Assembly (NCBI GenBank): GCA_973895155.1
Contig: OZ316898.1
Coordinates: 20,781,292-20,845,291, forward strand
DNA: 64,000 nucleotides
Direction: 5' to 3'
Source: Marsupella aquatica
Lineage: Eukaryota > Plantae > Marchantiophyta
The position numbers were made by a program, and so were the translations under genes. Every line of letters starts with the position of its first letter. The stretch's first letter is position 1. Below, one piece after another: positions 879-40,837 of the stretch. The notes beneath the pieces were generated by a model that was given only the letters and a program-made list of their open reading frames with translations, had not been told where the DNA came from and searched no databases.

Positions 879-1830
879 GGTATTTGTTTGTTGGATCTTT
901 TTGGTGGGATTAGCACTGGATTGGCTGCTGTTCTTCAGGCAGGAATTCATGTGCGTCGTTATTTGTATGTGGAGATAGATGAGACAGCACGGAGGGTCTC
1001 ATTGTGACATGTGGCTATGTTGGTGGATAGATATCCACAGTTGCTGCCAGTGGATGCTGTTCGTGGTTATCAGCATGCACTACCTGTTGATATTTCATTG
1101 CTGGGGGCGGATCATCTACATCGTGTTGGCCCCATTGATTTGGTGATTGCTGGTTGGCCATGTCAGGGCCAATCTAGAGCTGGCATTGGGCATGGACTTC
1201 ATGATCCACGCTCTGCATTGTTGTGGGAGATGTTATGGGTGCTGCGTCATCTCTAGCTACATCAGACACAGTCTCCAACATACATTTTGGAGAATGTGTC
1301 ATTGTTAGGTGATGATCGTAGTCGGATTGTTGCCAGTGTTCACCAGGTGAGGTCTTGGATTGGACCTGTTGTGTTATTGGATGCTGCACGTGTGGGTTCT
1401 CATGCACATCGTCCACGCTTGTGGTGGACTAATTTGATCCCATGTGGGGTGCTAAAGCGCGCATTTGACAACATTCCACGCTCACCAGCCTTAGTGGTGG
1501 ATGATATTTTGGATCCAGGGCGTCGTGCACAGGGTGTGACCCAACCTGATAGACCTCCATTGGCAATGGTCAATGCAGTTGGGTGCCCACGTTGTGCATT
1601 ACCCACTCTTGTAAGCCACTCTGCTTCATATGCATTCAGAGCAGGTGGCCCTGGACTTGTATGGGACACAGCTCTCCAGCAGTTAGTGGAGCCTACTGCT
1701 GATGAGAGAGAGTGTGCTATGGGATTTTTGACTGGCACCACTGTAGTTGCCTCTGTGTCAGAGGGTTTGCGGCGCCAGGTTCTTGGTCAAGCAATGGACC
1801 TGAATTGTTTGACTTGGATTATCAGCTTGG
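879..1830 (+). pseudogene. C5-cytosine DNA methyltransferase domain, DNMT3-like, within the retroelement polyprotein (stops at 1005 and 1254)
   Basis: Motifs appear in canonical order: I LDLFGGISTG, II YVEID, IV IAGWPCQG, V GLHDPRSALLWE, VI ILENV, VIII AHRPRLWWTN, IX ERECAMGF, X RRQVLGQAMD. Confidence 0.92.
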
Positions 1831-2063
1831 GAGTAGCTGAACAGTTGCGGATGCGCTCTACTGGAATTACTGATTATCCCTTGGTGAGCTTGCGGTCCAC
1901 TGAGACAGTATTGACCATAGCTGGGGGCGAGCAGACAGTCCATGGACCTATGGCAGGATTGGCCAAGGCTGGACAGATTGTTGAGCAGGAAGGGACTACT
2001 CAATCTACTACTAAATAGCAATCATCGGCTATCTCTTCTACCCTACAAAGAGATATTAGGGAT

Positions 2064-3518
2064 TTGGTGGAGAGTTGGGAACCACAGCTTGGCCCTAAGT
2101 TAACAGGGGAGGAGAGACGTCGCATGCATCAATTCCTGAAGAGTTACTGGAATTGTTTTGCATTTAGCATGAAAGATTTGGGGACATTAAAGGGTCCTGG
2201 TATTCAGATTGAATTGGCTAGTGATGCGCCAATCTTTCATAGGCCATACCGTTATAATGACATGGAGAGAGCTCTGATTCAAAGCAGAACTCAAGATTTG
2301 TTGGAAGCTGGATTGGTGGAGATTTCATATGGGGAGTATGCATCTGCCATAGTGATGCCAGCCAAGAAGGATGTGCATGGCAACTACACAGATAGGCGCA
2401 TGTGTGGTGATTACAGACCTATTAATCGCCAGACAAAATCTGATCGATATGCCATGCCCACACCTGAGGAGATCTTTGATGTTGTGGGGCATGCAAAGGT
2501 TTTCAGTTCATTGGATCTGAGGGCAGGGTACCATCAGCTTCCAATTAGGCATGCTGACAGGACCAAGACAGCATTCTGGGGGATTGATTCTTATGGCAAA
2601 GATCGTTTGTATCAGTGGTTATTCTTACCATTTGGGTTGAAGAATGCACCAGCTGAGTTCCAGAGAGTCATGGATCGAATCCTTGCAGGTTTGGATTTTG
2701 TTAGATATTATATTGATGATATTTTGGTCTATTCTTCTACTATGGAAGAACATCAGCAGCACTTGCAGATTGTGTTGGAGAGATTGAGAGCACATGGGTT
2801 GAAGCTTCATCCTGGCAAATGTAAGTTCTTCCAAGACCAGATTGAGTATTTGGGCCACACTATATACCCAGGGGGATTGGGTGTACAGCAGACTAAAGTG
2901 GAGGCCATTACACAGATTCCTTGTCCTACTGATGTGAGTAGAGTTTGTGCATTCTTGGGATTGGCGAGCTACTACAGGAGGTATGTTAAAGGATTTAGCC
3001 AGCTTGCTAAACCTTTGACCATACTCACTAAGTTGGATCAGGAATGGATTTGGGGTGATGACCAGGAGCATGCCTTTCAGGAATTGAAGCAAAGGTTGGC
3101 ATCATCCCCTATTTTGAGAAGACCCATTTCAGGCAGACCATTTCAGCTACACACTGATTGGAGTGGAGTAGGACTTGGAGCAATGCTGACTCAGAAGGAT
3201 GATGAGGGGAATGAGTTTGTTGTGGCTTATGCCAGTAGATCAAACAATTTAGCAGAGGCTAAGTATAGCTCTTATGAGGGAGAGTGTTTGGCAGCAGTGT
3301 GGGCTGTTGCACATTTTTGTTGCTACTTGTTTGGTAACCCCTTCACCTTGATCACTGATCATCAGCCTCTTAAGTGGTTAATGGAGTCTGACAAGCTTAC
3401 AGGGAAGCTTGCACGATGGGCATTGTTGTTACAGGAGTATGATTTCCAGGTGGTGCATAGGCCTGGAAAAGTGAACTTGGATGCAGATGGATTAAGCCGC
3501 AATCCATGTACCAGTTAG
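2064..3518 (+). CDS. Reverse transcriptase + RNase H (Ty3/gypsy type) segment of pol
   Basis: RMCGDYRPIN, LDLRAGYHQ, LPFGLKNAP, YIDD; RNase H LHTDWS, EGECLA, TDHQPL, DADGLSR. Confidence 0.95.
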   Translation: MVESWEPQLGPKLTGEERRRMHQFLKSYWNCFAFSMKDLGTLKGPGIQIELASDAPIFHRPYRYNDMERALIQSRTQDLLEAGLVEISYGEYASAIVMPAKKDVHGNYTDRRMCGDYRPINRQTKSDRYAMPTPEEIFDVVGHAKVFSSLDLRAGYHQLPIRHADRTKTAFWGIDSYGKDRLYQWLFLPFGLKNAPAEFQRVMDRILAGLDFVRYYIDDILVYSSTMEEHQQHLQIVLERLRAHGLKLHPGKCKFFQDQIEYLGHTIYPGGLGVQQTKVEAITQIPCPTDVSRVCAFLGLASYYRRYVKGFSQLAKPLTILTKLDQEWIWGDDQEHAFQELKQRLASSPILRRPISGRPFQLHTDWSGVGLGAMLTQKDDEGNEFVVAYASRSNNLAEAKYSSYEGECLAAVWAVAHFCCYLFGNPFTLITDHQPLKWLMESDKLTGKLARWALLLQEYDFQVVHRPGKVNLDADGLSRNPCTS

Positions 3519-3699
3519 CAAGATGAGACTGGAGCCAGATGGCATGATGAGTCAGATAAGGAGATGGTGCCAGGATGGCATGCATCTGCCTTTCTTTGTT
3601 GGGTGCCAGCATACAGTGGATCTGTGGACTCTACCTCATTGGATGGAGTGGATGATGAGTCTTCAGATGTGGATGTTAGTGAGGTAACTACTGGACAGC

Positions 3700-5000
3700 A
3701 AGATATTCACAATGATGTGAGAGTGTTGGAATATCTGCGCAGTGGTTCTATTGTTGGCAGTGTTGATGCCAAGGAACGTGACAGGGTTCTACAGAGAGCC
3801 AAGAGGTTTCGATGGGAGGGAAACCATCTTTTGAGAGTATTGCATGATGGTAGAGTGTTGGTGGTCCCAAAACCATCACAGAGAGTACATTTGGTGCGAC
3901 ATGCGCACGAGGAGTTGGGTCACTTTGGTGTAAAGTGCACTTACAGCTTGCTGTAGACACAGTATTGGTGGTGTGGTATGCACACTCATGTCCAGCAGTT
4001 GATAGCTAAGTGTGTGGTATGTGATAGAGTGAGAGCATCATTTAATGCTCCCACTCCCTAGTTGCACCCGTTGCCGATCATGGATTTGGGATATCGTTGG
4101 AGTTTGGATTTTGCTGGTCCATTACCTCTTACCCAACGTCATAATCGGTATGTTTTGGTCATGGTGGAGCACTTCTCCAAGTGGATTGAGCTAGTGGCAT
4201 TGCCAGATAAAGCCAATGGAGGAGTTGCTGCTACATTTTTGGATCATGTACTCAGTCATTTTGGAGCACCAGCTGAGGTGTTGACTGATCAGGGAACTGA
4301 GTTCCGTGGAGAGTTTGAGAGTTTGTGTGAACAAGCTCTGATTGATCATCGTACTACCTCTCGTGATCATCCTAAGGCAGATGGATTAGTTGAGAGAGTT
4401 GTGCAAACTGTGAAGAGAGGATTGCGTAAGTATGGCTTGCAGGTTGGTCATCTGGGAGATTGGGATCTCCAGCTACCTTGGTTAGCTATGGGCTACCGTT
4501 TCAGTCGGCAAGCATCACTTGCATCCTTCTCACCTTACTTTTTGCTCTATGGTAGAGAGCCAGATTTACCAGCAGCTATTCGTCGTGATGCTGCATCAGT
4601 TGTGAACTTGGATGATCCTGATGTTTGGGTCAAGGTGTGTTCAGAGAGAGCACCGGTATTTCAGAGAGTGATGCCCATGGCTTTCGACAACCTTGTCATT
4701 GCCCAACATCGTGATACTTTGAGGTATGCCACTATTCGTGGAGGAGGTTATCGTGCAAGCATTCGGCGATTTCATCCTGGTGCTTATATTTATTTGCAGT
4801 AGACAGCACCCGAGACAGCACCCACGACACTTGATGTGACCGCAGACCGGACAATCTTACGTGTGCGTGAAGTGTTGCCTTCTGGTGTCCTGATGTTGGA
4901 GGGACGCGATGGTATGGTTTGGAAGGATCATGTGTGCAACTGTGCACCATGTCACCTTCCCAACATTGATGGTACAGTAGATCCAAGCTTGGCACATGTT
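3700..5000 (+). pseudogene. Integrase (HHCC zinc finger + rve core) with in-frame stops at 3954, 4059 and 4800
   Basis: HEELGH...CVVC zinc finger; SLDFAG, TDQGTEF and GLVERVVQ (D,D,E triad); SPYFLLYGR. Confidence 0.9.
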
Positions 5001-5923: not shown

Positions 5924-8217
5924 GATACTTTTGTCTTGAAGGACCACCGCCCCAAGGAGGACATCTACTTTGGGCAGTAGGAAGGTCACCTGATTGTCCC
6001 CCGGGATCACCATTGTACTCATGGTGTCACTACCTACAAAGAAGAAAGTGTAAAATGGATATCAAATGCCAAGCCACTCCAACAATTAAAGAAACAAAGT
6101 GAAAAAAATCTCAAACACATTTCTTTTAAGTACTCCTATGTGGAAGCAAAGCCTTTGCACAAAGATACTTTGTCATGCTCTTGGGTTTGTGCATTTTTGG
6201 CCAGTATACCCCCCTCCGATTGGACCCTTGCCTCCCATTGGCTAGCCTAAAATGCCTGAAATGATTAGGATTGTTGGATTTGAGATTGAAGGGAAAAAGT
6301 CTTGTACTATGCCCAAGTCTTGGAAATGATTGTTTTATCACAACAGTCTGTGCTATACTCTGGGTGTTTTTAGAATGGTCAGATCGCTAATTGGAGGGCC
6401 AAAATTACGTCTGGCGGCCCAATTTGGTCAAGGATTTATATTTCACGACCCCATTATAGCTTGGCAAGTGAGGACTATCCTCAAGGCAAAATGAGTCAAA
6501 GTTGGCCTTGATCTGCAGCTTTAAAACCAGCCAACCCAACCAAACAACCAATACACTAGTTTCAAGCTTACTTTTACTCAAAATCATCCATGATTTTTCC
6601 CACTTGTAGATCTTTGCAAGACCTTTCTATTGATCCCGAGGCCACATCGAACAGGGCAGAATTGGAGTCAGGGCGACCAAAAATCACACGGCCTGAAACA
6701 GGGGCTGAGTCCAAAAACTGAGGCCAACACTTGATGCTGCTCATAAATCTGGGCTTCGGGTTACCCGGAGTCCTTTGTACCCGGATTTGCAGTTTAAGAT
6801 GAACATGGAGTTATTGACAATGTTGCGTTGTGGCTGTGTCAGATGCCATGCTCAGAGCTAATGCAACAATATGAGTTTGACACTCAAGTTTACAAGAATA
6901 GAGCATTAGGGGCAGCAACGCCAATGTTTGCAAGAAGGGTGAATGAGCTCACACATCACATTACCAAAAAATTCACCAATAATTAGAAATAGAGATTCCA
7001 GTTTTTGTCACTATGCTCAGGTGGATGATTGACAATCTTGAATCAGGAAAGAAACTTACATTGTATTAATATGAAGCGCTATGTTTCATTTGTGGAAATG
7101 TTCACTCAAAAGTGTTTGGTTTGTCTGAGTCCATCTAATCATCAACCTCAGAGGGAGAATGCTCATGAACAAATGAGCAAGTTCTAAACTCTTTATCTGG
7201 TCGACTCTTTCTCCTTTTCATCATTTCTATGAATTTGTATGACATGTAGTCGTCACAATTGCTGCTAGACTTAGGGAAATTGGAATGCCCAAGACCAAGA
7301 CACTTTTGTTTTGTGTTCACGTGGAAGCCAACCCCCAAGTTTAATGTTTCATAATTTGTGCGAGCCTCTTAGCAATTTCAATTCTCTCTCTTCAGGTCAA
7401 TACAAAGCACCAACTACTGAGTTTACCATAATTGCTCTTTGACAAAACTATTAGTGTAGCTTGGTTAAAATGTTGGTCCATGACAGGTGCTGATGGTAAT
7501 TCTACTACTTGTGACATGCTCAAAATGTTGGCCCGAATGTTGGTTCATGACAGATGGTAATGTTATTCTACTACTTGTGGTATGCTAATTGTGCATACTT
7601 AAGTAACATTTGAGGTAACACAAATTGCTTACTCATAATAGAAGGATAACATTAATTCCACCACACCAAGTTCATAGATATTAAAGATATTCGTAAAGTC
7701 ATAGAATGTTCGATGAGTGGAGGGTAGGTTAATTAGCGTAAACTCAAGATGAACTAGTTCAAAAGTAACTCAGGTTAGTTTAGTCACGTGCAAAGCAAGT
7801 AAGACCAGGGCAAGAAACTTCTGTGGTGTGGAACAATTGGAAAAAAGTTTTTGAGTCGAGATGAAAGGTTGGCCCGGGTCAAGATTGTCGGTGCTTCAAG
7901 CACGTCAAGGGTGGGGATTCAATAGCAATGGCTGCAAAGGGAGCTTCAAAGTTGAATGGTAGTGCTCGATGCAAGCACCATGGAAGCAGTCTCAAAATGT
8001 ACTAAGAAGAAGGGTGTGTGCAAAGCAAAAGAGAAACAACTATCAAAGGTGAGTTGGGAAGTGACCAGAGTACACCCTAAAGTGCTCACAACGATCAAAG
8101 TGTTTGGTATTGGGCGGGGGCTTGTCGATTGAAGAAGAGCACCCTACAGCGCCATCAATTTTGACTAGCAAGGGTGTAGCTACAGCTAAGGAAAGTGACA
8201 AGAACCATCTGGGTATG

Positions 8218-10078
8218 TGTTAAACGCCAACTTCGACCTTGCGATTAATGGCCGTTTAACTACCTTCTCCTCAGTAATCTCATTTAAACGATTAACCGAC
8301 CTTCGAGAGGCGGCACTCCTTCTATCTCGACACAGTCCCCGTAAGTGAATCCGACCAAGTGCTCTTGAATGTCGAGTTTCGTCTTCCACTTCTTAGGCAC
8401 TTCAGCCTCGGCCAACACTAACCCCTCTTTATACACAATCTCAATGAACCCACACCACTCGCGGTAAGTGATCAAGCAAATCAGAATGTTCTCGTATAGT
8501 GACTGACGGGAAATAAGATGGGTGCCGATAGAACAGATCCACAGTTCCAGTGATCTTAAGGTAATCAAAGAGCAAGACTTGTCGTCACTGCTGTCTGCGT
8601 TCATGGTTTTTAGTAGCCGTGACCTGATTAAGTCCGGCTGTCCTTTGAATCAGCCTGCCTGGCAATTGATTTCCGGATTGTGTGGGTGACTATGACAGGG
8701 TTACCCTAAGCAAGTACCCCAGTATCATGTTTACCCTTGTATGATGGAGGTGTATGACGACCAGTGTATCGCCTTCAAAACACACTATCTCCAACCAGAC
8801 ACCGCTTCTCACTAGCTGTCTGTTCAACCTATACCTTGAGGCGCTGGCCCGTAAGGTTCTGGTTCGCAATGAGACGATATTCATTCATCGTTGCGATTAA
8901 CGAGTAACGACTTGCTGCATAAGGCAAATTCCTTCTCTCTCTCTCTCTCTGATTCGAAGTTCTCATTCACTGCTCAAATGCGGACTTCACTCTGTTGCAT
9001 TCATTCCAAGCTCTCTCTTTATACTCAAAGACTACTCAACTGAGTAGGGACACTATTACAAAATTGCTGGCATTCCTAAGGTGAGCGGAGCCCTACCTTG
9101 CCCCAGACTTCTAGCAAAAAGTGACACCGTGACTAGTACTTCAAAGCCCCTAAATACCTTTACCCCGCGTCTATCTTCGCCCGAGGCCTCTACTACTTCT
9201 TGGGGTGCGCTGATTACAGTTGGGCGACTCGCGCCTCCTCTTTGGTCTCCTCCGCTCATTCACCAAGAACGCTAACTAATGCCTACCAGAACGATGAGTG
9301 GAAGCCAAGAACTGCTGATTACTATGTCAAGAAGTTCTGTCTTCCTGGTTACTGAACTGTGCAACGGCCTCCTCGATTCCCTTTGGTTGCGCCTGATCCG
9401 GAAGCTTCCGGACTCCCGATTGTTAATCTTGCCATATGTGCCTCGACCTCTTGACTTCTGTCATCTTCCTTGGGGTTGCTCGGTTCGCCGGCCACGATTA
9501 CTTGTTTGGCGGTGATTAATCGCCACGTAATCCGCTGATCGTGGCTGTTCTCCCGTCTTAGCAGCAGATTCCATTTCTTCCGCATGACCTTTCTGCAGAG
9601 TTCCTCGATGGCCTCGCCAGTGGTGAATCGTTGGCGGAACTCTTCGCCCTTCATTCCGAACAATTGTTGCCCAGCCGCATCCCATACACGACAGCTTCCT
9701 TCTTTGATCCGAATAGTGAACATGAACATAGGCACTCCTTCGCCTAGCGACTTACACTCATGAGCTAACCGATTCCTGCTAACGGGGGTTCTTATATCCA
9801 CCCCCCTTGCCTTTTCTGTCGAGCTCTTGTGCCTAAGGCACATACTCTGCCATCTGCTAGTAGGCCATCGCAGCCTTCATAGCAGAACTCGACTCCTACA
9901 CGACCGTTAATCGAGATGATCGTCGCCTCCCCTACTTCCAGCCTTTCTGTCATCTCAACAAAATGAATAACCGCTGGTCCTTGCTTACTACTTCCTAAAT
10001 ACTCTTGGTTGACCTCTAGTTGACACTTCTAAACCTAAAAAAACTAAAATATCGCCGGTGTAATTTTTATCATTTACA
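8218..10078 (-). repeat. 3' LTR (1861 bp)
   Basis: Near-identical to 19740-21602; minus-strand TATAAA at 9023-9018 followed by (GA)n. Confidence 0.97.
9349..9953 (-). CDS. RPA70 C-terminal (DBD-C)-like zinc/OB-fold protein encoded in LTR U3, split over two frames (9953-9792 and 9843-9349)
   Basis: First frame: MTERLEVGEATIISINGRVGVEFCYEGCDGLLADGRVC..., resembling RPA70 ATI..I...NFCY.AC......DR.C. Second frame: PMFMFTIRI..GSCRVWDAAGQQLFGMKGEEF...KKWNLLLRRE, resembling RPA70 RYILQ.QI.D.T....TAF.EAGEEIMG.SA.DL. Confidence 0.62.
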
Positions 10079-10091
10079 TTCTCCTTTGCTT
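10079..10091 (-). other. Polypurine tract
   Basis: Minus-strand AAGCAAAGGAGAA directly precedes the TG of the 3' LTR. Confidence 0.75.
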
Positions 10092-10155
10092 ACCTACGGA
10101 TTCGTCCTCGATATCCGTTATGCTTGGTACACGTTGGGGACAAGTCGTCACCGGT

Positions 10156-13100
10156 CTACTTCACTCCCCTACCCTCACTAACATTGGTCATCCTGGTTGG
10201 AGTTATCGGAACTCTGTTCTGTGCCTTCAGCTTCCTCACTTCGGATTTTAAATCCAAAATTGATCGTTCCCTATCTTCCAGTTCTTGCGAAAGCTGATCG
10301 TTCTCTGCCCTCAACTGCTCGAGTTCCTTGGTCTGTTCAGTGATACTCTCCTCTCCAGTGCCCTGTAGCTTCACAGTGGCTTCTAACTCAACAATTTTCC
10401 GCTTATAGTTGTCTTCTGTGATTCTCCAACTCTCCGATACTTCATAGTGTTTTCGTCCGAGCTTCCCTAGTTGCTCCTCCAGTAGGGCTTGTTTTTTCAG
10501 ATCCTCCGTGGGGTCCCCTTTGGAATTCTTGACTGCGGTGGTTTGCTGGAGTTGGGTTTCCAGACCCTGGAGCTTTTTCTTCAATTCCTCCACCCTCTGG
10601 CGTTCCACTGCCCATTCCCTGGCTATTCTGCATTGCTTTGCTGCTTCATCCTTGAGTTGCGATTGCAATTCTTCTATTTCCTTGAGTTTCTCGTTATCCT
10701 CCTTTAGTTGTGAATTGATCTTTTGGCTATCTGCTTTGACTGTGGCTATGGCTGCTCCGATGGCCGTGACAACCTCCTGGTAATTTGTCGTTAGTCCCCC
10801 TGGACGTAACCCTTCTATCCCTAGGTAATCAGCCAATTCCTGCGTGGCTGCCTCCTCATGCCTCCAGCTTCTTCCTATGGTTGTCAGTCGATCCCTATCT
10901 GCTATTAGCTCTTTGTTACGATTTAGTAACTCCTTGATGGTCTCCTCGGCCTCCACTGCCCATTTATCTGCCTCCTCCTTCCCGGCTAAGTCCTCGGCGA
11001 TTTCTTCTTCTCGCTTGTTCCACTCCAAGTGTACTAGCGAACTCGTTATTCCCTGATAAATGGCTAATTGACTGGCAATTTGTCCGATCATGACTGTAAA
11101 GATGCTATCTTTTTGCATTGTGCTGATCTTCTCTTTCAATACTTCGATCCCCAGCTTCTCCCGTAATTGTTGTTCATCACCTTCTTTTACGGTTGAGAGG
11201 GCGTACTTGAGGTCGTCGTCATCAATGGGCGCTATCCTATAAGCCTTGGTTTCTGCTCGCATTTTGTCTTCCTCCGCTGGTTCTTGCCCCTCTGATTCTG
11301 ACTCCTTCTTGGTCGGGGTTGGATTGGTTTCTTTCCTCCTGGTGGTGCGCACTGGTGATGCGTCCCCCTCTTGCTCTTTGTTGGCTGCTTCCTCTTCTGG
11401 CAGGGTGCTCTTATGCTTCTTGGCTCCCTCACTCCTCGTCGGTTGGTAAATGGTAGCTGCTAATTCCGTTTTCCCCCCGTCTTCCCCTGTAAGCTGACTC
11501 TCGATTAGCACTTGGAGATGCGACTCGATCTCTACTGGCAGGTTGCTTTTACTGCTGATTAATCGTTTAGCTCGCTTGATGGCTGCATGGAACCCTTCGT
11601 GGAAAAAGGCCGACCAATCCTTTTGCTTCCCGTCTCCCTCCTCTACAATTTTAATCATAAATCGAGGATATTCTGATCTGGGCCTCTTCCAATGTAATGC
11701 ATGGGTTACAAATTCAAGCCTTTCCTTGATTTTCTCATTCGTGCAATGCTTGGTCGGATAGCCCCTGTTGTCGTCTACGTCCTTGTGTTGTGGAAATGTG
11801 GCAGGTTGCCAAGTTTTCCCCATCCGTTTCTTGATCTCTGCTCCTTGCTTTGGCAGTTTGAAAAGCTCCTAAAGCTTCCAAGGATTTGTCTTAATGACTT
11901 GGCCCCTACATATTCCTTGATTTTTGGTGGGTTTCCACGTGGTGATGAACTCGCTGTAGTCCTCTGCTTGTAGCTTCGTGGTTTGATTCCACTTTAGTTT
12001 CACGAATTTCTCCAATCCTTGTGTCTGTAGAAATTTCCTGTGTGCTTGTCCGCGCATAGTTTGCAATATCTGTGGCCCCATTCTCTCAAATTTCAACACA
12101 TGACTTGTTTCCCCTGGACTCGCCTTTGCGGCGCGCGTCGCCTTCCCGGTCCTACTTTTTGCTTCTTCTGCTGGTTCTTCTTCTTCTTCACTGTCGGATT
12201 CTTCCGGTTCTTCCTCCTCGGATTCGACTATTTTGCTCTTTCCCCTTACGGATCGCACCTCCCTCATCGTTGGCGGCTCAAGTTTAATCATTTTGGTTGT
12301 TCCCTTGCGGTTCCTCTTGGTCCTAGAAGGAGTTGTTTCCTCAATTATCGCTGTGGTGACCGCCGTGATCGCTTCCGTGGGATCCGGGTTGGCTAACAAT
12401 TCTGCCATGGTCAGCTTCCGTCTCCCTTCTCGTTGAAGTTCATTCAGCTGGTTTCCCTGTGGTTCTTCTGTCTGCTCGGCCGCTTGCTCCGTTGGTGCCT
12501 CGATTACTGATTCGGTTTGTGTCTCTAGGGTTGGCCCCTCGGCGGGCCCCTGCCCTTCCCTTTTGGCTGTAGTTTCCGAGAGATGGTCAGCCGTTGAAGG
12601 TCCCTGACTCACGATCTCTTGATCATCTTCGGGGTTGCTCCTTTCCCTTTCCGCTGACTCGGAAACTTCCAGCTCCATGCCCTCTGCTGTTGTCGGCCCT
12701 TCTCCCTCTGTGTGCGTGGGGGCTGGTGTCTCCTCCATCGCCGGGGTTTCGAGTAGTTTGCTGATAGTAACGCGCTTCCTCGGTTTATCGTCCTCAAACT
12801 CGTTTGATCGTTTCAGCTTCAAAGTCTTCATGCCCACCGGTAATGTGTAATGCCTATTACCAACCCTCGACCATTCGAATTTCACCTCGCGCTGATAGCC
12901 ACTCCACTCGGGGTTCTCTCGTAATCTCCTTGCCAGTCGGAAATAGGGTTTTTGGTTTAACAATTCTTTTGCGGATGATGGTGCTCGCCCTTTGGATTCT
13001 AGTGTATCCTGAACCTCTAGTATAACATGTAATTTTCCCATGGAGTAGTCCTCAATACATGGTATCGAGTTGGGTCTTATCAAAATCCGATCTGCAATCC

Positions 13101-13711
13101 ATGTGGAAAAGGGTCCGTGTGTACATCCTACGATTACTACTCTATAAGGAAACCTTCTCCTCCTCTCTTCCTGGCCTTTGGGTAATTTGTGCTTCCAATC
13201 GTGGATCTGAAAGATTTCAGATAGGTCCTCCTCCGTTAGAACCACTGACTTGATTTGACCTGATTCCGTTGGTTCGTTTGATGGAATGGTTCCGTTCACG
13301 TAATCCTCTAACGGGTACCCCTTGATCGTTAGTTCTCGTCCTTGTTCATTGGTGCTTTCTTCTCATCGTAGTGTGTCACGTGTGGTGGTTGCAACTAGCT
13401 TCTTTGCGTGTGCTAAGGGTCGTTCCTTGTTCTTGGCGGTGAGTGCCCCTCTGGTGGCTTCCGTAGATGCTTGATCGGGGGTCACGCCGATACAGGCTAC
13501 CATTCTAGTGGGTAGCTCGTACCCTTCTCCATCCGCTTGATTCTCGTTAGGTGGTGCTGTCGGTAGTTGATAGCTGTCGTCGTCCTCGTTGAGCGCCGGT
13601 ACCGTATCGGAGTCGTTGCTGACTTTGCTTTCCCTTGGATAGTCGTTAACCGTATCCTCTACTTCTCGTAAGTACACGTCATTCCTTATGTGGTATGACT
13701 TCATCTTATTC
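10156..13711 (-). pseudogene. Long accessory frame 3' of integrase: acidic low-complexity region, plant-transposon-protein-like domain, C-terminal coiled coil
   Basis: ORFs 13363-13803, 11869-13299 and 10156-11823 share one frame, separated by a single TGA (13365-13363) and a single TAG (11871-11869). It contains the motif EF.....GICRGQVIK....L.ELFKLP..G and heptad-rich E/K/Q/L sequence. Confidence 0.7.
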
Positions 13712-16700
13712 CGTTCACCCGCTGTTGCTCGCTCCCATCCTGGTTGGTAATTTTGAAGGTTCCGTTTCCCCACGCCTTGAGGACGGTAAAGGGTCCTTCC
13801 CATTTAAGTCTCAACTTTCCTTTTTTTATTCGTGCCCGCTTTCGGCACCACAGTACTAATTCCCCGTCCGTGAACGTGGTTACCTCCCGTTGATCGTCTA
13901 TTCGTCGCTTGCGTTGTCCTTGTACATACTCTAATCGCTCTTTGGCCCTTCTCCGGGTTTCGGTAACCTCCAATAGTGCTTTTAACCGTCTAGTTAAACA
14001 CAGGTTCTGATTTATGTCGTATCCCGCTGCGATTTGCAAATTGGGTAATTCGTAGTCTGTCGGCATACGGGCCTCAACTCCAAACATTAATTGAAAAGGG
14101 GTGTGGCCCGTGGTTACCTTATATGCCGTGCGGAATGCCCATACTGCCGCCGGCAGCTGAACGTCCCAATCGTTTTACTGTTCGTTAACCACTTTCCGTA
14201 AAACGTTGAGTAAGACTTTGTTTGTTGACTCTGCTTGCCCGTTACACTGAGGGTAATAGGGAGTCGAAAACCGATGGCTTATATGGTAATTATCCGTCAG
14301 TTCCTGGATAACCTTGTTCAAAAAATGTGAACCTTGATCGCTCACTAGCTCACCTGGTAATCCGTATCTCGTGATGATGTTCTGGTACAAGAACTTGGAT
14401 GTTACTCGGCAGTGTTCTCCCGAGTTGCGACTACTTCCACCCATTTTGTGGTATATTCTGTTGCTGCTAAAATATACTGGTTCTGACTATATCTGGAAGA
14501 TGGAGTGATGGGTCCTATGAAATCTAGTCCCCATTTCTGAAAAATATAAGGGGCGATTATAGGCCTGAACTCCATGTTTTCCTTTATAGGTCCTGTACGC
14601 TGACACAGGTCGCAAGTTTTTACAAACTCCCGAGTGTCTTTATGGACAGTTGCCCACCAACGTCCTTGCTGAAGAATCTTCCTCAGGGTGATCTCGGTGC
14701 CGAAATGTCCCCCTCCTAGTCCTTCATGTGCCGCGATTAAGGCTTCTGGCCGTTCTTCCTCCGGAACTACTCTACATAGTATGTCATCGGGCGGCCCCTG
14801 GTAATAAAGCACGTGGTTGATCAAGGTGTAGGGCCTTGCCTTATAGGCGTAGACCTTCCTTTCCTTACTGGACAACCCCTCGGGGAATACCGCTGTGCGT
14901 AAATACCTTTCTAATGCTGGTTTGTCATCCAAGGTCACTAGATTTACAGGATGCCTTTCCTTGGCGTCTTGAAATAGCTCCATATCCGGTAATTGATCGT
15001 CTTCTTCCTTGCCTGTCTCTCCTGATTCGAGTCTACTCAAATAATCGGGTATGACATGGGTTTTCCTGGGTTTATAAATGGTGGTGTAATCAAACTCAGC
15101 TAATAACAAAATCCATCTTGCAATTCGGCCCGACAGCTGTGGTTTGTTTACTAAGTTGACCAAGGCATTATGATCTACATAGAATATGAATCGATTCCCA
15201 AGTAAATAATGCCTAAATTTCTTTACTGCAAATATCATGGCTAATGCTTCCCTCTCAGTCGTGGTGTAGTTCCTTTCATGCACGTTTAACAGCCTACTGG
15301 CATAGTATACTGGTAAATCGATACCTTGTTCTCCCTTCTGTGCTAACACTGCCCCCACCGCCACTAGAGAAGCATCTGTATGTAGATGGAACTCCCTCTT
15401 CCAATCTGGCTCCTTGAGTATGGGTGCATGGCACAACCGGTCCTTGATTTCTTCAAATGCTTTCTGACAGTCGTCGTCCCAAGTGAACGTTTGATGGTTA
15501 CCCGTTAATCGTGCCAACGGGGCACTGATTTGGGAGTAACTTTTGATGTAACGACGATAGAAACCTCCACTTCCCAGGAACCTTCTGACTTGAGTTGCAC
15601 TATTGGGGACTGGCATCTCTTTAATGATTTTTATCTTATCTGGGTCTAGTAACAAGCCCTGTTTACAAACTATGTGTCCTAATATCTTGCCCGATGGTAC
15701 AAAGAAGGTGCACTTATCAGGGTTCAGGCTGACTCCCCCTTCCCTACATCTTAAGAGGCATAATCTGAGATGACCTATATGTTGCTCTTCCTCTCCGTAT
15801 ATGGTGAAGTCATCTAGGAAGATTTGCATAAATTGATTCAAATACTCATGAAATAACATCATCATTAATCGTTGGAATGTACTAGGCCCATTGCATAATC
15901 CAAAGGGTAATACGAGACACTGGAAAGCGCCCCATTCCGTAATGAAAGTGGTCAGCTCCCTTGCTTCTGTTGCTAACCGGACCTGACTGTACCCGCTGTA
16001 CCCATCTAAAAATGAATAAGCTGACTTTCCTGCTACCACATCCAGAACTGCTTCTAGAAAGGGTACCGGAAAAGGGTCTTTTATGGTCGCTGCGTTTAAT
16101 TTTCTGAAATCAATGCAGACTCTTAACTTCCCATTTTTCTTAGGTACTACGACTATCGGGGATAGCCACGTATAACGCTTAACAGGTTCAATGAATTTGG
16201 CATCAAGGAGCCTTTGGATTTCTTCTTTTACCTTTTCTGCATAGTTGGGGTTCATCCTATATTGTTGTGTCTGCACCGGTACTGATCCTGGTACAAGTCG
16301 GATTTGATGTACGCCAATTGACTCTGGAACTCCCTTTAACTCCGTGTAATCCCAGGCAAAAACATCTCGGAATTCGGCGAGTAGGGTAACAAGTTCCTCT
16401 TTGAGCTCGGGGGAAAGGTGTTTCCCTATCTTTACTTCTCGTGGTCGTTCAGTGTCACTCAAATCGACCTTCTGAATGTGCTCTTCCTCGGTGGCACTCC
16501 ATCCCACCACCTTCTCTGCTAGATCCTGCAAGGTGGTCTGTGCTTCTTCCTCCTTTAATGAGCACTCCTGAATGCCTTGCGGGTCTATGTGTTTAAACAG
16601 ATCGTTTCGTAAATCATGATCCATTTTTTTTTTGGTCATTCCTTGCATCTTGTCGAGCTTGACTATTTCCATATCTGAAATTGGGACTAAGTCTGGACGG

Positions 16701-18814
16701 CATTTTAAATAAGTCTCTTCTTCATCCTCATTCAACCCCTCTGCCCAGTTCAAGGTACAGACTCTGGCCATAGGTGGTACACCGTCCTCGATAGCCTTGG
16801 TTCTGATCTTGAAAGTCTCTCCTCCGTGTTCTATTTTTATATAATCCTTCTCTTCCCCCCAATGTTGTTTTACTTTGGCTTGTCTTAGCCAAGGTCGTCC
16901 TAACAACATGGGTTGTCCTCGGGTGGAATCTGCTTCTCTCAAAACTACCACTCCTAAATTGTACTTGATGCCTGAAATCAGCATTGGTAAGTCTGGCACG
17001 TAACCTAGTGGGTGACAGCTGCTTTGATCGGCCATTATTAAATTAAAAGGGGCTGGTAAGAGTTTGACTCTGCCTAGCAGTTTGTAGGTCTGCTCACTCA
17101 TGAGGTTTACGGCTGACCCTCCATCCAGCAATACGTTCTTTAGTTTGATGCCCCTAAGGCTGATCTGTACTACGGCTCCTTTGTCGATTAGGGGAATCTT
17201 CCCAGCTTGGTACAATGGTACTCCGGGTAATGTGGTAGGACTAATTCTGCCCCCCAACCGTCTCATTACTGCTTCCTTGCACTGTGGTGCTAACTGGAAC
17301 AGTTCCCCGACAGTGATGTCGACTCTGGTCTTCGCGATGAGTTGCACTAGCTTATCCACTATTCACTGGTTTGCTTCGGCAGGGTTATTCGGTGGTTCTT
17401 CGTCTCATGGGAGTTGTCCCGTTTCTTGATCGAATCCCCCCATCGTCACTCCCTCCTCTAGAATTTCCGTATCTGTCTTTGCGTAAGGTTCTGAACGCAT
17501 TAATCGTTCAGGTCGTGGCAAGGTCTCGTTCCGCTGTTTGTGGCGAATTTCATCCGCCATTTCTCGGGTGGTTGCATCCATTTGGCTCCAATCGAATCCT
17601 CCCTCCGTCTCCGGGGAATTGGTTTGGGTTGAGTTCTCTGGCTGCCCTTGAGATCTTGTCACCACGTATGTTGACACCTGCACAGTATTCACAGGTGCTG
17701 GGGCTTTCCCCGCTATTTCTTCTTTTTCTTTCATGTGCTTCATCCATAATTCACAATCGGGCCCCCTGATGTGGCCAGTTAGTCGACAGTAATAGCAAAT
17801 CGGTGGGTATTTAGTACCACCATCCTTATAGGGCCTTCGGTTTGCATTACGATCCGGATTGTAATATCCCTGACTACTCTCCATCCTATCCCCATCTTGT
17901 TTGCTTGTTCCTACCTGATTTACACCTAGGCTAGGTTTCTTTTTAAAAGGATTCTGGTTGCATTCCTGAGTAGTATGTCCAGGCCTCATATGTATTTCAC
18001 AGAATTTACGAGTACTAAGCTCACCTCGCTCTCGGTTTTCCTTGACTTCTACCTTAGAAGGTTCTGTTTTTCGGTTAACCCTCTCTTCATCCTTATTGCT
18101 CTCGTTCTTTTCCTGGTTAAGCATTTGAGTAATGCCTTCTAGCCGTATTAATCTTTTCTCGTATTCGTCAGCATTAGAAGTGGGATTTTGTTCTACCACT
18201 GTGACTAGACTTCCCTTCACAGCCTTTCTCATCCAGCTAATTCGTTGCCCGTCGGACGGTTTGTTAGTTAATCGCCTCATTGTTACCTTTAACCGTCCAA
18301 TATAGTTCTGTACTGGTTCTCCTTTCTTCAGAGTCATGTTTTGCAGAATGCTATACAAATCAGATTCTTCCTTAGCCCTTCTGTAATGATCTAAGAATTC
18401 TTTTGAAAACTCAGGCCAAGTTTTGAAATGGTCAGCTGGGTATTGAGTGTACCATACAAAAGCCTCCTTGTCCAGTGAGCTGGGAAATAGCTCTAATCAG
18501 GCTGTGTCGTTCTGTTCGTGGTTAGCTCTGAGCATTTCTTCGAAATGTGCTAAGTGGGTATCGGCATCTTCATCAGGTGCTCCCTTGAACATGGGTATTT
18601 TAACCCTTCTGGTAGGAGTCGATCTCGAACTAATGCCAACTCCTTGGTGGGTTTTAAGTCGTTCCATGGCTTCTTCCAGGGGTTCTTCGACCTTATCTTG
18701 AGCCCTTGAAGTCTCAATTCGTTCTTCGACCTCAAGTCTGAGTCTGCTTTCTTGGAAAGGTTCGAACTCCTCTGCCATTTCCCCTTCGTTAGGATTGATG
18801 GGCGTCTTGCCCAT
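13701..18814 (-). pseudogene. gag-pol polyprotein (Retrotrans_gag, two Zn knuckles, protease, RT, RNase H, integrase) with premature stops and two 1-nt frameshifts
   Basis: LFPSSL..EAFVWY gag; CEIH....H....C and CYYC....H.....C; LLDGGS; [12 protein letters not shown]; HTDAS; HEG..GGHF..CDLC; WGLDF, SDQG, QAES. TGA at 18497, 17405 and 17363, TAA at 14175, frameshifts near 14405 and 13710. Confidence 0.93.
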
Positions 18815-19036
18815 TTATCTTCTGGGTTAGCAAAGCCTTTTCTCTGCCTTCAAGCAATATACTCAACGATCAGGTCTTTCTTTACAAGGGTGATGTCAAG
18901 ATCTTATTACTCGTTACTTTTCACAAAAATGGAGACCTTCTACTGTCTCCTTTACTTGACTAATGCTATAACTTTTGTTAATCAGTTCCTCTCTCTCCTT
19001 TGCTCAACTGCGGCTATGCCCTCTGCGAAATGACTC

Positions 19037-19351
19037 CTATTCGCTTAAACTAGGAGTGCAGGCTTCTGGAGCCATGAGTTCCTCGTTAAAGCACATCGTT
19101 AATAACTGGTTTAACATAGAAAACTCAAAACTGTCATGTTGACTCCACATCATACATCTTGGGCAAGCTCCTGCGGTTTCCTCTAGTTTAGAACTTAATT
19201 TCCTAGCGATTCTGCCTATCTGGAATGCTATCACAACCGGGTACTCATTTCGATTCCAATGACACCATTCTAAGAGTTTTCTAAGGTCCTCCTTTCTCTT
19301 GGGTAGGCGGTACTGCGTGTAGCCTTGAGGTAATCGATCACTTGGTGGCAT
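19037..19351 (-). CDS. Small leader ORF B (104 aa, CPRC motif), unknown function
   Basis: ATG-initiated ORF between PBS and gag; overlaps ORF A by 14 nt. Confidence 0.35.
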   Translation of the reverse strand: MPPSDRLPQGYTQYRLPKRKEDLRKLLEWCHWNRNEYPVVIAFQIGRIARKLSSKLEETAGACPRCMMWSQHDSFEFSMLNQLLTMCFNEELMAPEACTPSLSE

Positions 19352-19619
19352 GGTTGCTGCTGTAAACGCTGCTCCGAACAGAGGATTGCAAATGAATTGC
19401 TCGCCTCCTCACGTTCCAGGTTCCTCCATGCGTTTCTCGAAGTACCAACTCTGTGTGTGTGGGCGTGGTGTAAGCAATTATCATAACATCGCCTTCTCGT
19501 GCCCTACTTCTCCCGCTGGCTAGTATCAAGTGCTCTTTCTCGTTCAGTGTTGCTATGATTGCTGCTTCGGCATCCTTCTCAAAATAGAACATCGTCCAGA
19601 ACTCCTTCGGCGAGTTCAT
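19338..19619 (-). CDS. Small leader ORF A (93 aa), unknown function
   Basis: ATG-initiated sense ORF about 100 nt downstream of the PBS, with globular-looking composition. Confidence 0.35.
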   Translation of the reverse strand: MNSPKEFWTMFYFEKDAEAAIIATLNEKEHLILASGRSRAREGDVMIIAYTTPTHTELVLRETHGGTWNVRRRAIHLQSSVRSSVYSSNHATK

Positions 19620-19715
19620 GTCACCCGTTCGCCTTTCTGGATTTGCGCGTTTCTCTCTTGGTTCGGACTGCTGGTCGTAGCAGTTGCTCCTCTTTTGGAA
19701 CCCTCAACGAGGCGT

Positions 19716-19733
19716 TCCCCAGTATGGTCGCCA
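19716..19733 (-). other. Primer-binding site, probably tRNA-Arg
   Basis: Minus-strand TGGCGACCATACTGGGGA follows the LTR end and a T-run; it resembles the tRNA-Arg PBS (TGGCGAC....CTGGGGA) of Tat/Ogre-type elements. Confidence 0.7.
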
Positions 19734-19739
19734 AAAAAA

Positions 19740-21602
19740 TGTTAAACGCCAACTTTGACCTTGCGATTAATGGCCGTTTAACTACCTTCTCCTCAGTAAT
19801 CTCGTTTAAACGATTAACCGACCTTCGAGAGGCGGCACTCCTATCTCGACACAGTCCCCGTAAGTGAATCCGACCAAGTGCTCTTGAATGTCGAGTTCTG
19901 TCTTCCACTTCTTAGGCACTTCAGCCTCGGCCAACACTAACCCCTCTCTATACACAATCTCAATTATGAACCCACACCACTCGCGGTAAGTGATCAAGCA
20001 AATCAGAATGTTCTCGTATAGTGACTGACGGGAAATAAGATGGGTGCCGATAGAACAGATCCACAGTTCCAGTGATCTTAAGGTAATCAAGGAGCAAGAC
20101 TTGTCGTCACTGCTGTCTGCGTTCATGGTTTTTAGTAGCCGTGACCTGATTAAGTCCGGCTGTCCTTTGAATCAGCCTGCCTGGCAATTGATTTCCGGAT
20201 TGTGTGGGTGACTATGACAGGGTTACCCTAAGCAAGTACCCCAGTATCATGTTTACCCTTGTATGATGGAGGTGTATGACGACCAGTGTATCGCCTTCAA
20301 AACACACTATCTCCAACCAGACACCGCTTCTCACTAGCTGTCTGTTCAACCTATACCTTGAGGCGCTGGCCCGTAAGGTTCTGGTTCGCAATGAGACGAT
20401 ATTCATTCATCGTTGCGATTAACGAGTAACGACTTGCTGCATAAGGCAAATTCCTTCTCTCTCTCTCTCTCTCTGATTCGAAGTTCTCATTCACTGCTCA
20501 AATGTGGACTTCACTCTGTTGCATTCATTCCAAGCTCTCTCTTTATACTCAAAGACTACTCAACTGAGTAGGGACACTATTACAAAATTGCTGGCATTCC
20601 TAAGGTGAGCGGAGCCCTACCTTGCCCCAGACTTCTAGCAAAAAGTGACACCGTGACTAGTACTTCAAAGCCCCTAAATACCTTTACCCCGCGTCTATCT
20701 TCGCCCGAGGCCTCTACTACTTCTTGGGGTGCGCTGATTACAGTTGGGCGACTCGCGCCTCCTCTTTGGTCTCCTCCGCTCATTCACCAAGAACGCTAAC
20801 TAATGCCTACCAGAACGATGAGTGGAAGCCAAGAACTGCTGATTACTATGTCAAGAAGTTCTGTCTTCCTGGTTACTGAACTGTGCAACGGCCTCCTCGA
20901 TTCCCTTTGGTTGCGCCTGATCCGGAAGCTTCCGGACTCCCGATTGTTAATCTTGCCATATGTGCCTCGACCTCTTGACTTCTGTCATCTTCCTTGGGGT
21001 TGCTCGGTTCGCCGGCCATGATTACTTGTTTGGCGGTGATTAATCGCCACGTAATCCGCTGATCGTGGCTGTTCTCTCGTCTTAGCAGCAGATTCCATTT
21101 CTTCCGCATGACCTTTCTGCAGAGTTCCTCGATGGCCTCGCCAGTGGTGAATCGTTGGCGGAACTCTTCGCCCTTCATTCCGAACAATTGTTGCCCAGCC
21201 GCATCCCATACACGACAGCTTCCTTCTTTGATCCGAATAGTGAACATGAACATAGGCACTCCTTCGCCTAGCGACTTACACTCATGAGCTAACCGATTCC
21301 TGCTAACGGGGGTTCTTATATCCACCCCCCTTGCCTTTTCTGTCGAGCTCTTGTGCCTAAGGCACATACTCTGCCATCTGCTAGTAGGCCATCGCAGCCT
21401 TCATAGCAGAACTCGACTCCTACACGACCGTTAATCGAGATGATCGTCGCCTCCCCTACTTCCAGCCTTTCTGTCATCTCAACAAAATGAATAACCGCTG
21501 GTCCTTGCTTACTACTTCCTAAATACTCTTGGTTGACCTCTAGTTGACACTTCTAAACCTAAAAAAACTAAAATATCGTCGGTGTAATTTTTATCGTTTA
21601 CA
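19740..21602 (-). repeat. 5' LTR (1863 bp)
   Basis: Near-identical to 8218-10078; TATAAA on the minus strand at 20547-20542. Confidence 0.97.
20873..21477 (-). CDS. Second copy of the LTR-encoded RPA70-C-like OB-fold gene
   Basis: Same two-frame arrangement as 9349-9953; one V/M difference in the 164-aa ORF. Confidence 0.6.
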
Positions 21603-22470: not shown

Positions 22471-25400
22471 GACTTGATATGAAAAGCTTCAAAGATTGCA
22501 CCACATTACAATGAATACATGACTCAATGTTGATTGACTAAATATATACAATCCATAAATACCTGAAAATTGACCCAATGTAGCTTACTGAGGACATAGT
22601 TTTTACTAAAATACATCTTGCAAGATTTTGCACCTAGTAGAAGATTATGCTTACACAACTGGAAAAGGTAAGAGATAAAAGTAAAATAGAATAGAAAATC
22701 ACCAAGGTTAACAAGTTAAACCATAAGAAGGAAGTGTGGAAGCAACATTTTGAGTATCACCTTAAGGGGAAGAAATGCAAGACGAGATGGCTGTGAAAAA
22801 AAATGATTTTTAGACAGGGGAAGCGAGAAAGAACCAATTGTAGACTGCATTGGAATAGTAGCTTTATGGGGAATGAGTGGAGAAAGATTTGCATATGAGG
22901 GCAGTACTCTTCCAGTGGCTGACAGAAGGGAGTGTGCCTTGAGCACTGCCAACGCAGAAAGACAGAATACTCGGCCATCAGCAAAAGATAGAATGGGGCA
23001 TGTCTGCAAGCCCAAGGGAAGTGGAAGAGCCATGTACCACTTTGTTATCCAAACAGAGTCAGGTAAATATTAGGTTTGGGGTCAAGTGGGAACTTAACTA
23101 TTTGGATGTGATGGCACTAACTTTGAAGAGATCTATAGGGACCCGGCAGATAGACAGAGGTTCTTCCAGGAGGTTATGCGGACATGGTGCATACTCAACC
23201 GATTGGAGAATTGAAGAGCACAGAGCTAGGCCAAGTAAGTTGTGCATAGAGTGTATCATAGGGAGACAACCAAGCCTTATCGACCACCTGTTACACCTAA
23301 GACAGAAGAAGAACCAAGGCATAGAGAAGACAGAATACTAGCAGCCACGAGTCAATTACAGGTCAGTGAAGAAGAGTTTGCAGAGAAAAGCATATGTGCA
23401 GTATAGTAGTGGACAGGAAGAGACACGTTATAGGAACACTTGGTTATAAATAAATGTTTCGTAGTTAGAGGTTTTTGTGGTAGATTGAGGATACTTGAGT
23501 GTAGGGTTTAGGGTTCTCATTGCCATGTGGCAAGTTGCTACTGGCTAGCCTTGACCCGTTGCGACCCCCTCATCCCCCCTTTCTTCTTCCCTGTTGCAGG
23601 GCACAGTTGCAAGTCTGGCAGGGGAGAAAACACATCATTTGTTGCACACTCCCCTCACAAAAACCCTACAGTTTTGGCCCTAAGGAGAATGCATCAGGGA
23701 AGGGGGTCAGTGCAGGTTAAGGCTAGACAGTAACAACTGGCCACATGACAATGGGAACACATATATGAGTAAATACTAACCCAAATACAAAGTGGGGGGC
23801 AGGTTGATAATTAATTTAGTTTGGGAGGAACATTACTAAAATAGGGTATTTTGGGGGAAAGGTCATTAATAAAAAGCTGTTTGGCCATTTGGGGCATGCA
23901 GAGGAATAGTGTTGTTTGAGAAACATCTAACGTTTATTGAGGATTTGAGTGTGAAGGACTTGCACTCAAAGTGGGAATGAGGTGAGCATGAAGGGAGCAA
24001 ATAATTTGCAAATAAGAGATACATGGCATGTATTAGCAAATTAAGGGTGAATGCTGATTTGTGGAACATTTTTTTAGACTTTCTCGTCCACCCACAATGA
24101 AAACATGAAAAAAAATCCACAATGACAATACTTCAGCAACAACTACGTGGCGACCTTACTATAATTGCAAACAACCCCAATGACAACACTTCAACGACAA
24201 CAACACTACCACACCAACATGATTGCAACAACAATTGTGCAACACAAGGGCTTTGGACCATTCTCATAGTAGAGTATACCTGGCCCATAATTTTTATAGA
24301 GCATGCTAGGGCAAGGGTGATTAAGAATGAACGTCAGTCTTGATTCTAATTAATATTAATGATCCTATGACTAGTCAGACTGCTAAGACCACTTGAATCC
24401 AGTAAAGGTGTGATTCAGTGAATTTAAATATTATTGATGATAGGGGCTGATGGCTGAGCTGAACGTAGCACAATGGTAGGCCATCTTAGCTACAAGGTAA
24501 AGGTTGGGCTTGAGGCTCCATCAGGCACACATCACTTAGTCACAAACCCCACCCAAAAAGGGAGTTCACAAAAAACTTCTCATAGAGAAGCCCTTAGAGA
24601 CTTAGGAGATGGCTGGTCGACAAGGTTAGCAGGCGCAATGCAAGGGGAACCACAAGGGGAGGCTTGAGGCTCAACATGAGACAGGACATCCTGAATGTGA
24701 GGGTCAACCATAGTTGAGCAAGTCTGGGATAGTTATATTTACTAGTCCAGATATAATTTTGTGTGCACAGGAAAGGTTTTTTTAACCCAAGTACTCTGAA
24801 TGAGCCTACTCACAAACATTGTCTAATATCAATTTATTTCTATCACCAGAGAAATTATGACCTCTGGCTTTGATCATGAATTATGGGCCATGGAGTATGT
24901 CATGGCTAGTAGATTCTGATCACAATTAGAGGATAGACATATGAAAGTGATTGACAGTCACTATATAAAACTAGTCCAAGAGTACGAGGACAATATTGCA
25001 CGTCAGGCCACCCTCAATGATTGGGGTTTACACAAGGCTCAAAGTAAACCTTGAGAACTTCAATGGTTGCAATTTCTTCCCACAATTTTGGAGGCAGGAT
25101 GGTGGCCAAAGAGCCCTATCCTTAGTCATTTGAAAAACCCCTTTCATAGGGGCTTCAAGTAGGTAGTCTCAACCTTTAAGTCTGCAGAAAGATCCCTAAC
25201 CCAAAAGTACCAGTTTTGATTTGTGATCACACATATATGGACAAGCTTTTTCGTGTCTGCCTTTCTGGGAAAACTACCTTGACCTTGTTGGGAGGCAGCC
25301 CTTTAGAGTTTCAAGACACCCTAATAAGGCTTCCCAAACATGCAGGTCAGTGGAAAAAATTACCAGTTTAGATCTGCGGTCATGACTGTGTGGACAAGCA

Positions 25401-40834: not shown

Positions 40835-40837
40835 ATC

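Follow-up and report, generated by a model that had tools for sequence, protein, structure and literature searches.

A predicted OB-fold protein gene inside the LTRs of a liverwort Ty3/gypsy retrotransposon, and its possible role in RNA export

Plant LTRs are treated as noncoding, and the protein gene described here is overlooked by annotation tools and Pfam. We asked whether the protein-like reading frames in both LTRs of a retrotransposon from the liverwort Marsupella aquatica form a genuine gene and, if so, what its product could do. Our analysis covered a 64,000-nt stretch of contig OZ316898.1 (hereafter, the window), for which a preliminary description, made from the letters alone, had proposed that each LTR encodes an RPA70-like single-stranded-DNA-binding protein. 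The LTRs delimit an element laid out as follows:

8218-21602, minus strand: complete Ty3/gypsy retrotransposon, 13.4 kb (paired LTRs plus gag/pol)
8218..10078, minus strand: 3' LTR, 1861 bp (LTR self-comparison)
19740..21602, minus strand: 5' LTR, 1863 bp (LTR self-comparison)
19717..19733, minus strand: primer-binding-site-like sequence starting with TGG, after the 5' LTR (sequence)
10079..10091, minus strand: polypurine tract before the 3' LTR (sequence)
17405..18814, minus strand: gag (PF03732; two zinc knuckles) with one in-frame stop (domain scan)
13701..17362, minus strand: pol, with protease motif, reverse transcriptase (RT), RNase H, and integrase, broken in integrase (domain scan)
10156..13803, minus strand: third sense frame, ~1200 codons, two in-frame stops (ORF list)

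The Ty3/gypsy assignment follows from LTRs that run TG...CA in element sense, an identical 5-bp target-site duplication (TSD) on both flanks, a primer-binding site, a polypurine tract, and the order RT, RNase H, integrase. The two LTRs are 98.98% identical, differing by 11 substitutions and three small indels, and gag, pol, and the third frame are each interrupted by stops or frameshifts. The third frame contains acidic as well as basic stretches and ends in coiled-coil-like sequence; a Pfam scan assigned it to no family. By identity, the closest named RT is from Calypogeia fissa (77%, with 69% of the query aligned), followed by those of Riccia, the fern Adiantum, and Marchantia (about 48%–54%). 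As for features relevant to Tat/Athila, there is one RNase H and no chromodomain match in Pfam, and liverwort RTs are the closest named ones by identity alone; liverwort Tat elements Z1 and Z2 have been reported (PMC10508981, PMC13468544). Two ORFs of ~120 codons lie between the primer-binding site and gag (19037-19703, minus strand) and have no Pfam match. No tRNA genes were found, and an Rfam scan of 8000-25000 gave 0 matches.

The element was inserted into an old copia integrase remnant (21650-22550, minus strand). Elsewhere in the window there is another decayed gypsy pol (1257-4802, plus strand; 32% identical to that of this element), along with pieces of host genes (a 5MP1/2 HEAT domain at 29701-30207 and F-box plus LRR sequence at 45500-47057, both plus strand), a 40-bp tandem array (40835-41301), and a 1.1-kb element with 200-bp inverted ends (57655-58737).

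All the peptides quoted in the preliminary description are present, in both LTRs, and belong to the following features:

9349..9953, minus strand: OB-fold accessory gene in the 3' LTR, ATG at 9953 to TAA at 9349, frameshifted near 9800 (sequence, profile, selection, fold)
20873..21477, minus strand: copy of the OB-fold gene in the 5' LTR, with the identical break (sequence, profile)
9018..9023, minus strand: TATAAA match, presumed candidate LTR promoter (motif scan)

The ATG sits 125 nt inside the LTR. The TATAAA match (9023-9018) lies downstream of the gene, which agrees with the placement of the gene in a putative U3, as originally suggested. The claim of a gene in the LTR stood as far as real coding sequence is concerned; what had been missed is that this copy is frameshifted. 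It occupies two frames, a first piece that stops at 9792 and a second that forms a 175-codon frame (9876-9349), and the break near 9800, which adjoins a six-base run, is common to both LTRs. Both pieces score on a single profile built from 25 relatives, with the window's own rows excluded, and are therefore pieces of one protein; the upstream piece (E = 1.5e-15) provides an independent test, having played no part in finding the relatives, and the value for the downstream piece (E = 4e-40) is circular. Fusion of the third ORF to the gene through a donor at 10093 was ruled out, as the two are out of frame (checked by hand).

We aligned the LTR with contigs from four out of four DNA runs, which span two studies and two organism codes. 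Among the contigs listed, all those spanning 9800 are one base longer than the window (4/4 runs), and therefore the gene of the family is a single frame of ~200 codons in other copies. An intron cannot account for the shift between frames, since the one-base difference is present in the DNA of the other copies. The break is either private to the lineage of this copy or an under-called base run in the assembly; if it is real, the gene, broken in both LTRs, was not needed in cis for this insertion. Contigs of two runs (X1 and X2) also contain the flank of this insertion, so that these runs may come from the sequenced material itself, and in X1 the LTR contigs are ~16 times deeper than the flank contig, a depth that does not equal copy number.

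The contigs also revealed a second subfamily, ~15% diverged over 9490-9947, that retains the ATG (by hand, from a loose end at 9947). Its tail is longer by a net three bases, and it realigns over 9346-9414, just past the stop, so that the last 65 nt up to the stop are alignable; the interval 9414-9490, the site of the export-like motif described below, did not align. Roughly 70 differences separate the subfamilies, of which 42 were listed and used, excluding those at 9796-9800. Third codon positions hold 27 of these 42 (p = 4e-5), and 26 changes are synonymous and 16 nonsynonymous. The resulting dN/dS of ~0.13 (corrected; 0.18 raw) is approximate because it uses the 42 listed of ~70 differences and includes two changes private to the window. 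Four other frames, taken as controls, give 7–10 synonymous changes out of 42; the mirror antisense frame gives 23 out of 42, as expected from shared third positions, and contains no ORF of 100 codons. On these sequence comparisons the gene is under purifying selection in the LTR family, and the conservation check suggested in the preliminary description was thus borne out. The interval 9682-9729 is also matched by a third family at a greater distance, in which the adjacent letters preserve frame and motifs (by hand). Similarity islands farther down the LTR suggest that the subfamily genes also lie in LTRs.

A diverged copy was detected outside the element:

22807..23409, plus strand: distant decayed copy of the OB-fold gene (profile of 25 relatives)

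It is 34% identical to the LTR gene over 80 aa and adjoins an old copia remnant, with a T-tract-AG site before it and a TATA-like sequence near 23446 after it; a search for TG...CA/TSD borders found none. Just past the TATA-like site there is a long rod-like RNA hairpin (23480-23790, plus strand; z = −5.8) with no Rfam match.

A phmmer search of 1.84 billion representative proteins returned 30 matches, 21 of which are full or partial relatives. The other nine were dropped as repeat proteins that match ~25 residues many times (two of the nine were checked, a WD40 and a tandem-repeat protein), and a profile search added two relatives. Three of the 10 relatives looked up are Calypogeia fissa proteins, and one of the clusters comprises three members, each on a contig of its own. 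The C. fissa accessions are CAM6096102.1, CAM6124012.1, CAM6085841.1, CAM6098574.1, and CAM6089831.1. The longer relatives share 16%–67% identity in the core, a near-duplicate pair aside; the longest has 295 aa, and many are truncated. A word-based protein search with the window ORF yielded 0 relatives out of 34 candidates, and no loci related to the gene or to the RT were found in metagenome and viral contigs. The LTR location was observed for this element; the relatives in other species are known as proteins.

Is the gene simply a neutral passenger, a captured fragment of a host or Helitron RPA1? The LTR copy and the copy at 22807 are both broken, many relatives are truncated, as noted above, and Helitrons do carry RPA1 domains (PMC3288121). 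The selection signal disfavors such an origin without function: changes are biased to third positions, start and frame are kept, the candidate metal ligands are invariant over 20%–67% identity, and the tail has acquired new motifs. We consider a passenger very improbable. A Helitron-borne RPA gene was rejected, given that the gene lies inside paired LTRs and that no Helitron family appeared among the 24 ORFs scanned.

At the sequence level, the signs of an OB fold are weak, although they agree in direction. The two window pieces have no Pfam match; PF08646 was hit by four out of 21 relatives (E = 0.024–0.29; 11–15 bits), none of the 21 reaching its gathering score of 28.5 bits; yeast RPA1 DBD-C came third of three matches (E = 1.3); and PDB sequence searches with the pieces gave nothing meaningful. 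In the Atlas, the top matches of the window piece were to PF08646 at 0.84, which we take as a lead only, and an intact natural relative, P0004, had no usable feature match (pLDDT of the Atlas' own model, 0.31). AlphaFold2, run on P0004 with 27 alignment rows, gave a model with a pLDDT of 81. All seven of its Foldseek matches with E ≤ 1e-3 are RPA70 DBD-C, and a wide structural search ranked RPA70C first (Z = 12.3, 140 residues, rmsd 3.7), with Tetrahymena Teb1 OB-C at Z = 11.1 and POT1C and CTC1 below 8. The downstream window piece, which lacks the first strands, has RPA70C in its top five Foldseek matches (E = 0.03–0.2) and none with E ≤ 1e-3 (best 0.028); nor did a viral structure library yield a match at E ≤ 1e-3. 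Support for the complete fold comes from the P0004 model.

Within the predicted fold we identified a candidate metal site:

9754..9872, minus strand: predicted zinc insert, with Cys 9872-9870, Cys 9842-9840, a basic loop, His 9762-9760, and Cys 9756-9754 (sequence, conservation)

The four candidate ligands are conserved in 18/19, 19/19, 22/22, and 21/22 relatives, respectively, the loop holds two to eight Arg/Lys residues, and the relatives also have invariant aromatic and basic residues. The zinc ribbon of RPA70 DBD-C has four Cys. The proposed RPA70 DBD-C pattern therefore held for a predicted OB fold with a zinc insert and failed in its details, the ligands being Cys-Cys-His-Cys and the PF08646 cut-off being missed; the structure-prediction check that had been suggested did recover an OB-fold match for the P0004 model. 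There is no tandem DBD-A/B, as 15 of the 16 relatives with an N terminus begin 14–33 residues before a conserved W-G. We conclude that the protein is predicted to be built like RPA70 DBD-C and is not an RPA1 subunit, having one OB domain, Cys-Cys-His-Cys ligands, and scores below the Pfam cut-off.

Two readings take this likeness to DNA-binding domains at face value. According to the first, which extends an idea of the preliminary description, the protein would be a cytoplasmic single-strand chaperone that coats or protects ssDNA intermediates of reverse transcription in membrane-associated particles, where export and lipid signals would only retain it. The best structural matches are ssDNA-binding domains, and the invariant aromatic and basic residues are in keeping with such a role. 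However, gag already has two zinc knuckles, DBD-A and DBD-B, the high-affinity domains of RPA, are absent, and no packaging signal or gag/pol fusion was seen (the longest relative being of the length given above). The gag knuckles, together with the tail motifs described next, favor an RNA adaptor over this role, which we regard as rather unlikely. In the second reading, the protein would act on DNA in the nucleus, binding the LTR or single-stranded target DNA and steering transcription or integration. The score of Teb1, a telomere binder, points in this direction, and DNA binding was proposed for the TRP28 proteins among the extra ORFs of Retand (PMC11963269); the export-like and CaaX motifs, on the other hand, point away from the nucleus, and we judge a nuclear role quite improbable.

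The C-terminal tail carries two short motifs:

9418..9447, minus strand: class-1a nuclear-export-signal-like motif, V-x3-M-x2-L-x-I (pattern test)
9349..9363, minus strand: CaaX box C-T-V-Q plus stop (C-terminus comparison)

Both were first spotted by eye, and the statistics were run afterwards. Class 1a export signals follow a hydrophobic pattern with 3-2-1 spacing. Tails of at least 20 residues are available for 11 out of 27 alignment rows (the remaining 16 have no such tail), and the pattern occurs in nine of these 11, or eight of 10 without a near-duplicate, compared to 0.78 tails expected from shuffles. It is also found in 19% of 600 random pol windows; reversed, it occurs in two of the 11 tails, and a heptad pattern in four. 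The motif lies 12–29 residues past the last strand, a variable distance as for a free linear motif.

A Cys stands four residues from the end in four of the eight complete tails, defined as nonredundant sequences running past the export-like motif (4/28 with truncated sequences included): CTVQ in the window and CVIQ, CRFQ, and CALL in relatives (p = 9e-5; 3/7 and p = 1e-3 without the window). The corresponding count among pol proteins is three out of 120. In the CaaX rule for plant prenyltransferases, the last residue is A, C, Q, M, S, or L, with Q and L standard (PMC3927097); the four C termini fit this rule and are candidate prenylation sites. The decayed copy at 22807-23409 has a near match to the export-like motif and a C-A-V with two stops after it. 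Taken together, the tail likely combines an export signal with a lipid-anchor signal, as read from sequence.

These tail motifs could also serve a host-factor decoy, in which a mimic of RPA70C binds RPA2/RPA3 or another RPA partner and drags it from the nucleus, so that the element would be less strongly silenced or less closely watched by DNA-damage surveillance. Both motifs suit sequestration. DBD-C is the RPA1 domain of the RPA trimer core, which is joined by one helix per subunit (PMC10122647); helices at 162–177 of the P0004 model, low in confidence and following a variable linker, align into the RPA trimer-helix region; and Arabidopsis RPA2 is linked to transcriptional silencing in two titles cited by PMC12964672. 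Against this, identity to RPA70C is 10%–12%, the tail, which has low confidence and comes after a variable linker, fits the export pattern (9/11) better than the heptad (4/11), and the conserved basic zinc loop suggests binding of nucleic acid. We see a decoy as unlikely, if still a serious candidate.

How would a gene inside an LTR be expressed? We found the following signals:

10035..10051, minus strand: splice-acceptor-like site (T tract plus TAG) located 82 nt upstream of the ATG, no other ATG intervening (consensus scan)
10088..10096, minus strand: splice-donor-like site just upstream of the polypurine tract (7/9 consensus positions)
8284-8604 and 19806-20126, minus strand: second LTR ORF, 106 aa, possibly coding, in the downstream part of the LTR (ORF list, subfamily similarity)

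Strict acceptor matches are found at only three distinct sites in the 13.4-kb element, one of which is 10035. Joined to the donor at 10093, it would remove a putative intron of 59 nt, which is short, comprising the purine tract and the LTR end; donors farther upstream are possible. The gene copy in the 5' LTR, upstream of the presumed promoter, would be silent, and the acceptor match makes expression from the 3' LTR copy likely. Integrase holds a possible internal exon (14353-14537, minus strand), in which an acceptor match at 14537 is followed after 184 nt by the element's best donor match, at 14353.

The second LTR ORF has no Pfam match. Over the ten codons that come after 8334, the diverged subfamily retains five residues, four of them through third-position changes (by hand), and the LTR pair differs within the ORF by two 3-base indels. 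A short upstream exon would be in phase with an acceptor match at 8503 and an AG/GTA donor-like site near 8835.

Our best explanation, to which we tentatively give somewhat less than an even chance, is that the LTR-encoded protein is an adaptor resembling Rev and the large delta antigen, which binds element RNA, exports it, and anchors it at a membrane. Unspliced RNA has to leave the nucleus in any element that has splice sites and extra genes. The protein would be translated from the 3' LTR copy via a spliced mRNA that uses the acceptor at 10035. Its OB face and basic zinc loop would bind single-stranded element RNA, the leucine-rich tail motif would recruit exportin-1 (CRM1), and a prenylated CaaX box would hold the complex at the ER or plasma membrane, the site proposed for translation and particle assembly. 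The broken gene of this copy would be served in trans by intact copies.

The excess of the export-like motif over shuffles, the recurrent CaaX Cys, and the rare acceptor match just before the ATG argue for such an adaptor. Several observations count against it. The CaaX Cys is missing in four of the eight complete tails and the export-like motif in two of 11; about half of the consensus-matching export signals tested in a study that names class 1a do not bind CRM1 (PMC5358978); and what looks like a tail motif may be left over from the RPA trimerization helix, into which structural alignments with the model continue. DNA, not RNA, is what the closest structures bind, the sequence-level support for the fold is weak, and a membrane anchor may hinder shuttling. 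A scan for RNA folds identified no response element, its candidates being modest (z = −3.5 to −4.0). One such fold lies in the OB coding region (9753-9902, minus strand), which is more stably folded than shuffled sequence (z = −3.5, and −3.8 for the second LTR); of eight paired positions changed in the subfamily, six keep pairing, including one compensatory pair, and two break it, a weak signal.

A broader scenario, which we think unlikely to hold in full, is that a captured RPA70 domain became a prenylated RNA exporter encoded in the LTR, an independent version in liverworts of the strategy of Rev and the large delta antigen, bringing the RNP to membranes and perhaps also to plasmodesmata, through which it could pass between cells. 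The second gene, in R/U5, would make the LTR an accessory cassette of two genes.

Whatever its role, this is a genuine accessory gene under selection, unusually placed and of an architecture not described before; what is new is the tail with its export-like motif and frequent CaaX box. A plant LTR thus carries one selected protein gene, perhaps two, and a retroelement has reused a host replication domain. According to a 2025 review, no direct study has addressed how RNA of plant LTR retrotransposons is exported (PMC12786077, available text); a 200-residue protein with two separately mutable motifs makes the question testable in liverworts. In the open literature that we searched, no OB-fold or RPA-like gene is reported from any LTR; such elements may be described in repeat libraries or in subscription papers.

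Retroviruses have genes that overlap U3 and are expressed from the 3' copy, namely, MMTV sag and HIV nef. The gene described here resembles them in lying inside an LTR, whereas the proteins are unrelated and those viruses are retroviruses of vertebrates. With RPA70/RPA1 DBD-C (PF08646; 8rk2_A, 4gnx_C, 1l1o_C) and Tetrahymena Teb1 OB-C (3u50) it shares a predicted OB fold in which the first strands are followed by a metal-site insert; P0004 aligns to these DBD-C-type structures with Z = 12.3–11.1 over 125–140 residues (rmsd 3.6–4.3). Unlike them, it has a single domain, Cys-Cys-His-Cys ligands, 6%–12% identity, and a variable tail with motifs, and it is encoded in an LTR. Plant Helitrons are also transposons that carry RPA1-type OB folds, but as DBD-A/B/C beside Rep/helicase in a DNA transposon (PMC3288121), whereas here DBD-C stands alone in a retrotransposon LTR. 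The env-like, TRP28, and SMC ORFs of plant LTR retrotransposons are likewise family-conserved accessory genes of unknown function; in contrast, they are internal, mostly between pol and the 3' LTR, and the available text of these sources describes none with an OB fold or inside an LTR (PMC7264820, PMC11963269).

For the proposed function, the nearest precedents are CERV and HIV-1 Rev, and the large hepatitis delta antigen. CERV, from the C. elegans element Cer1, has a Cys/Arg loop and a candidate export signal and exports unspliced genomic RNA (PMC10309623). Like CERV and Rev, our protein would be element-encoded, made from a spliced mRNA, and equipped with a basic/Cys loop and a candidate export signal; it differs in that there is no common fold and that CERV is large and nuclear, with no CaaX box mentioned in the available text (PMC10309623). 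The large delta antigen is a small nucleic-acid-associated protein whose terminal export signal and farnesylated Cys link an RNP to membranes, the combination that we propose here, but its fold and agent are unrelated, and it docks on the envelope of a helper virus (PMC5537664).
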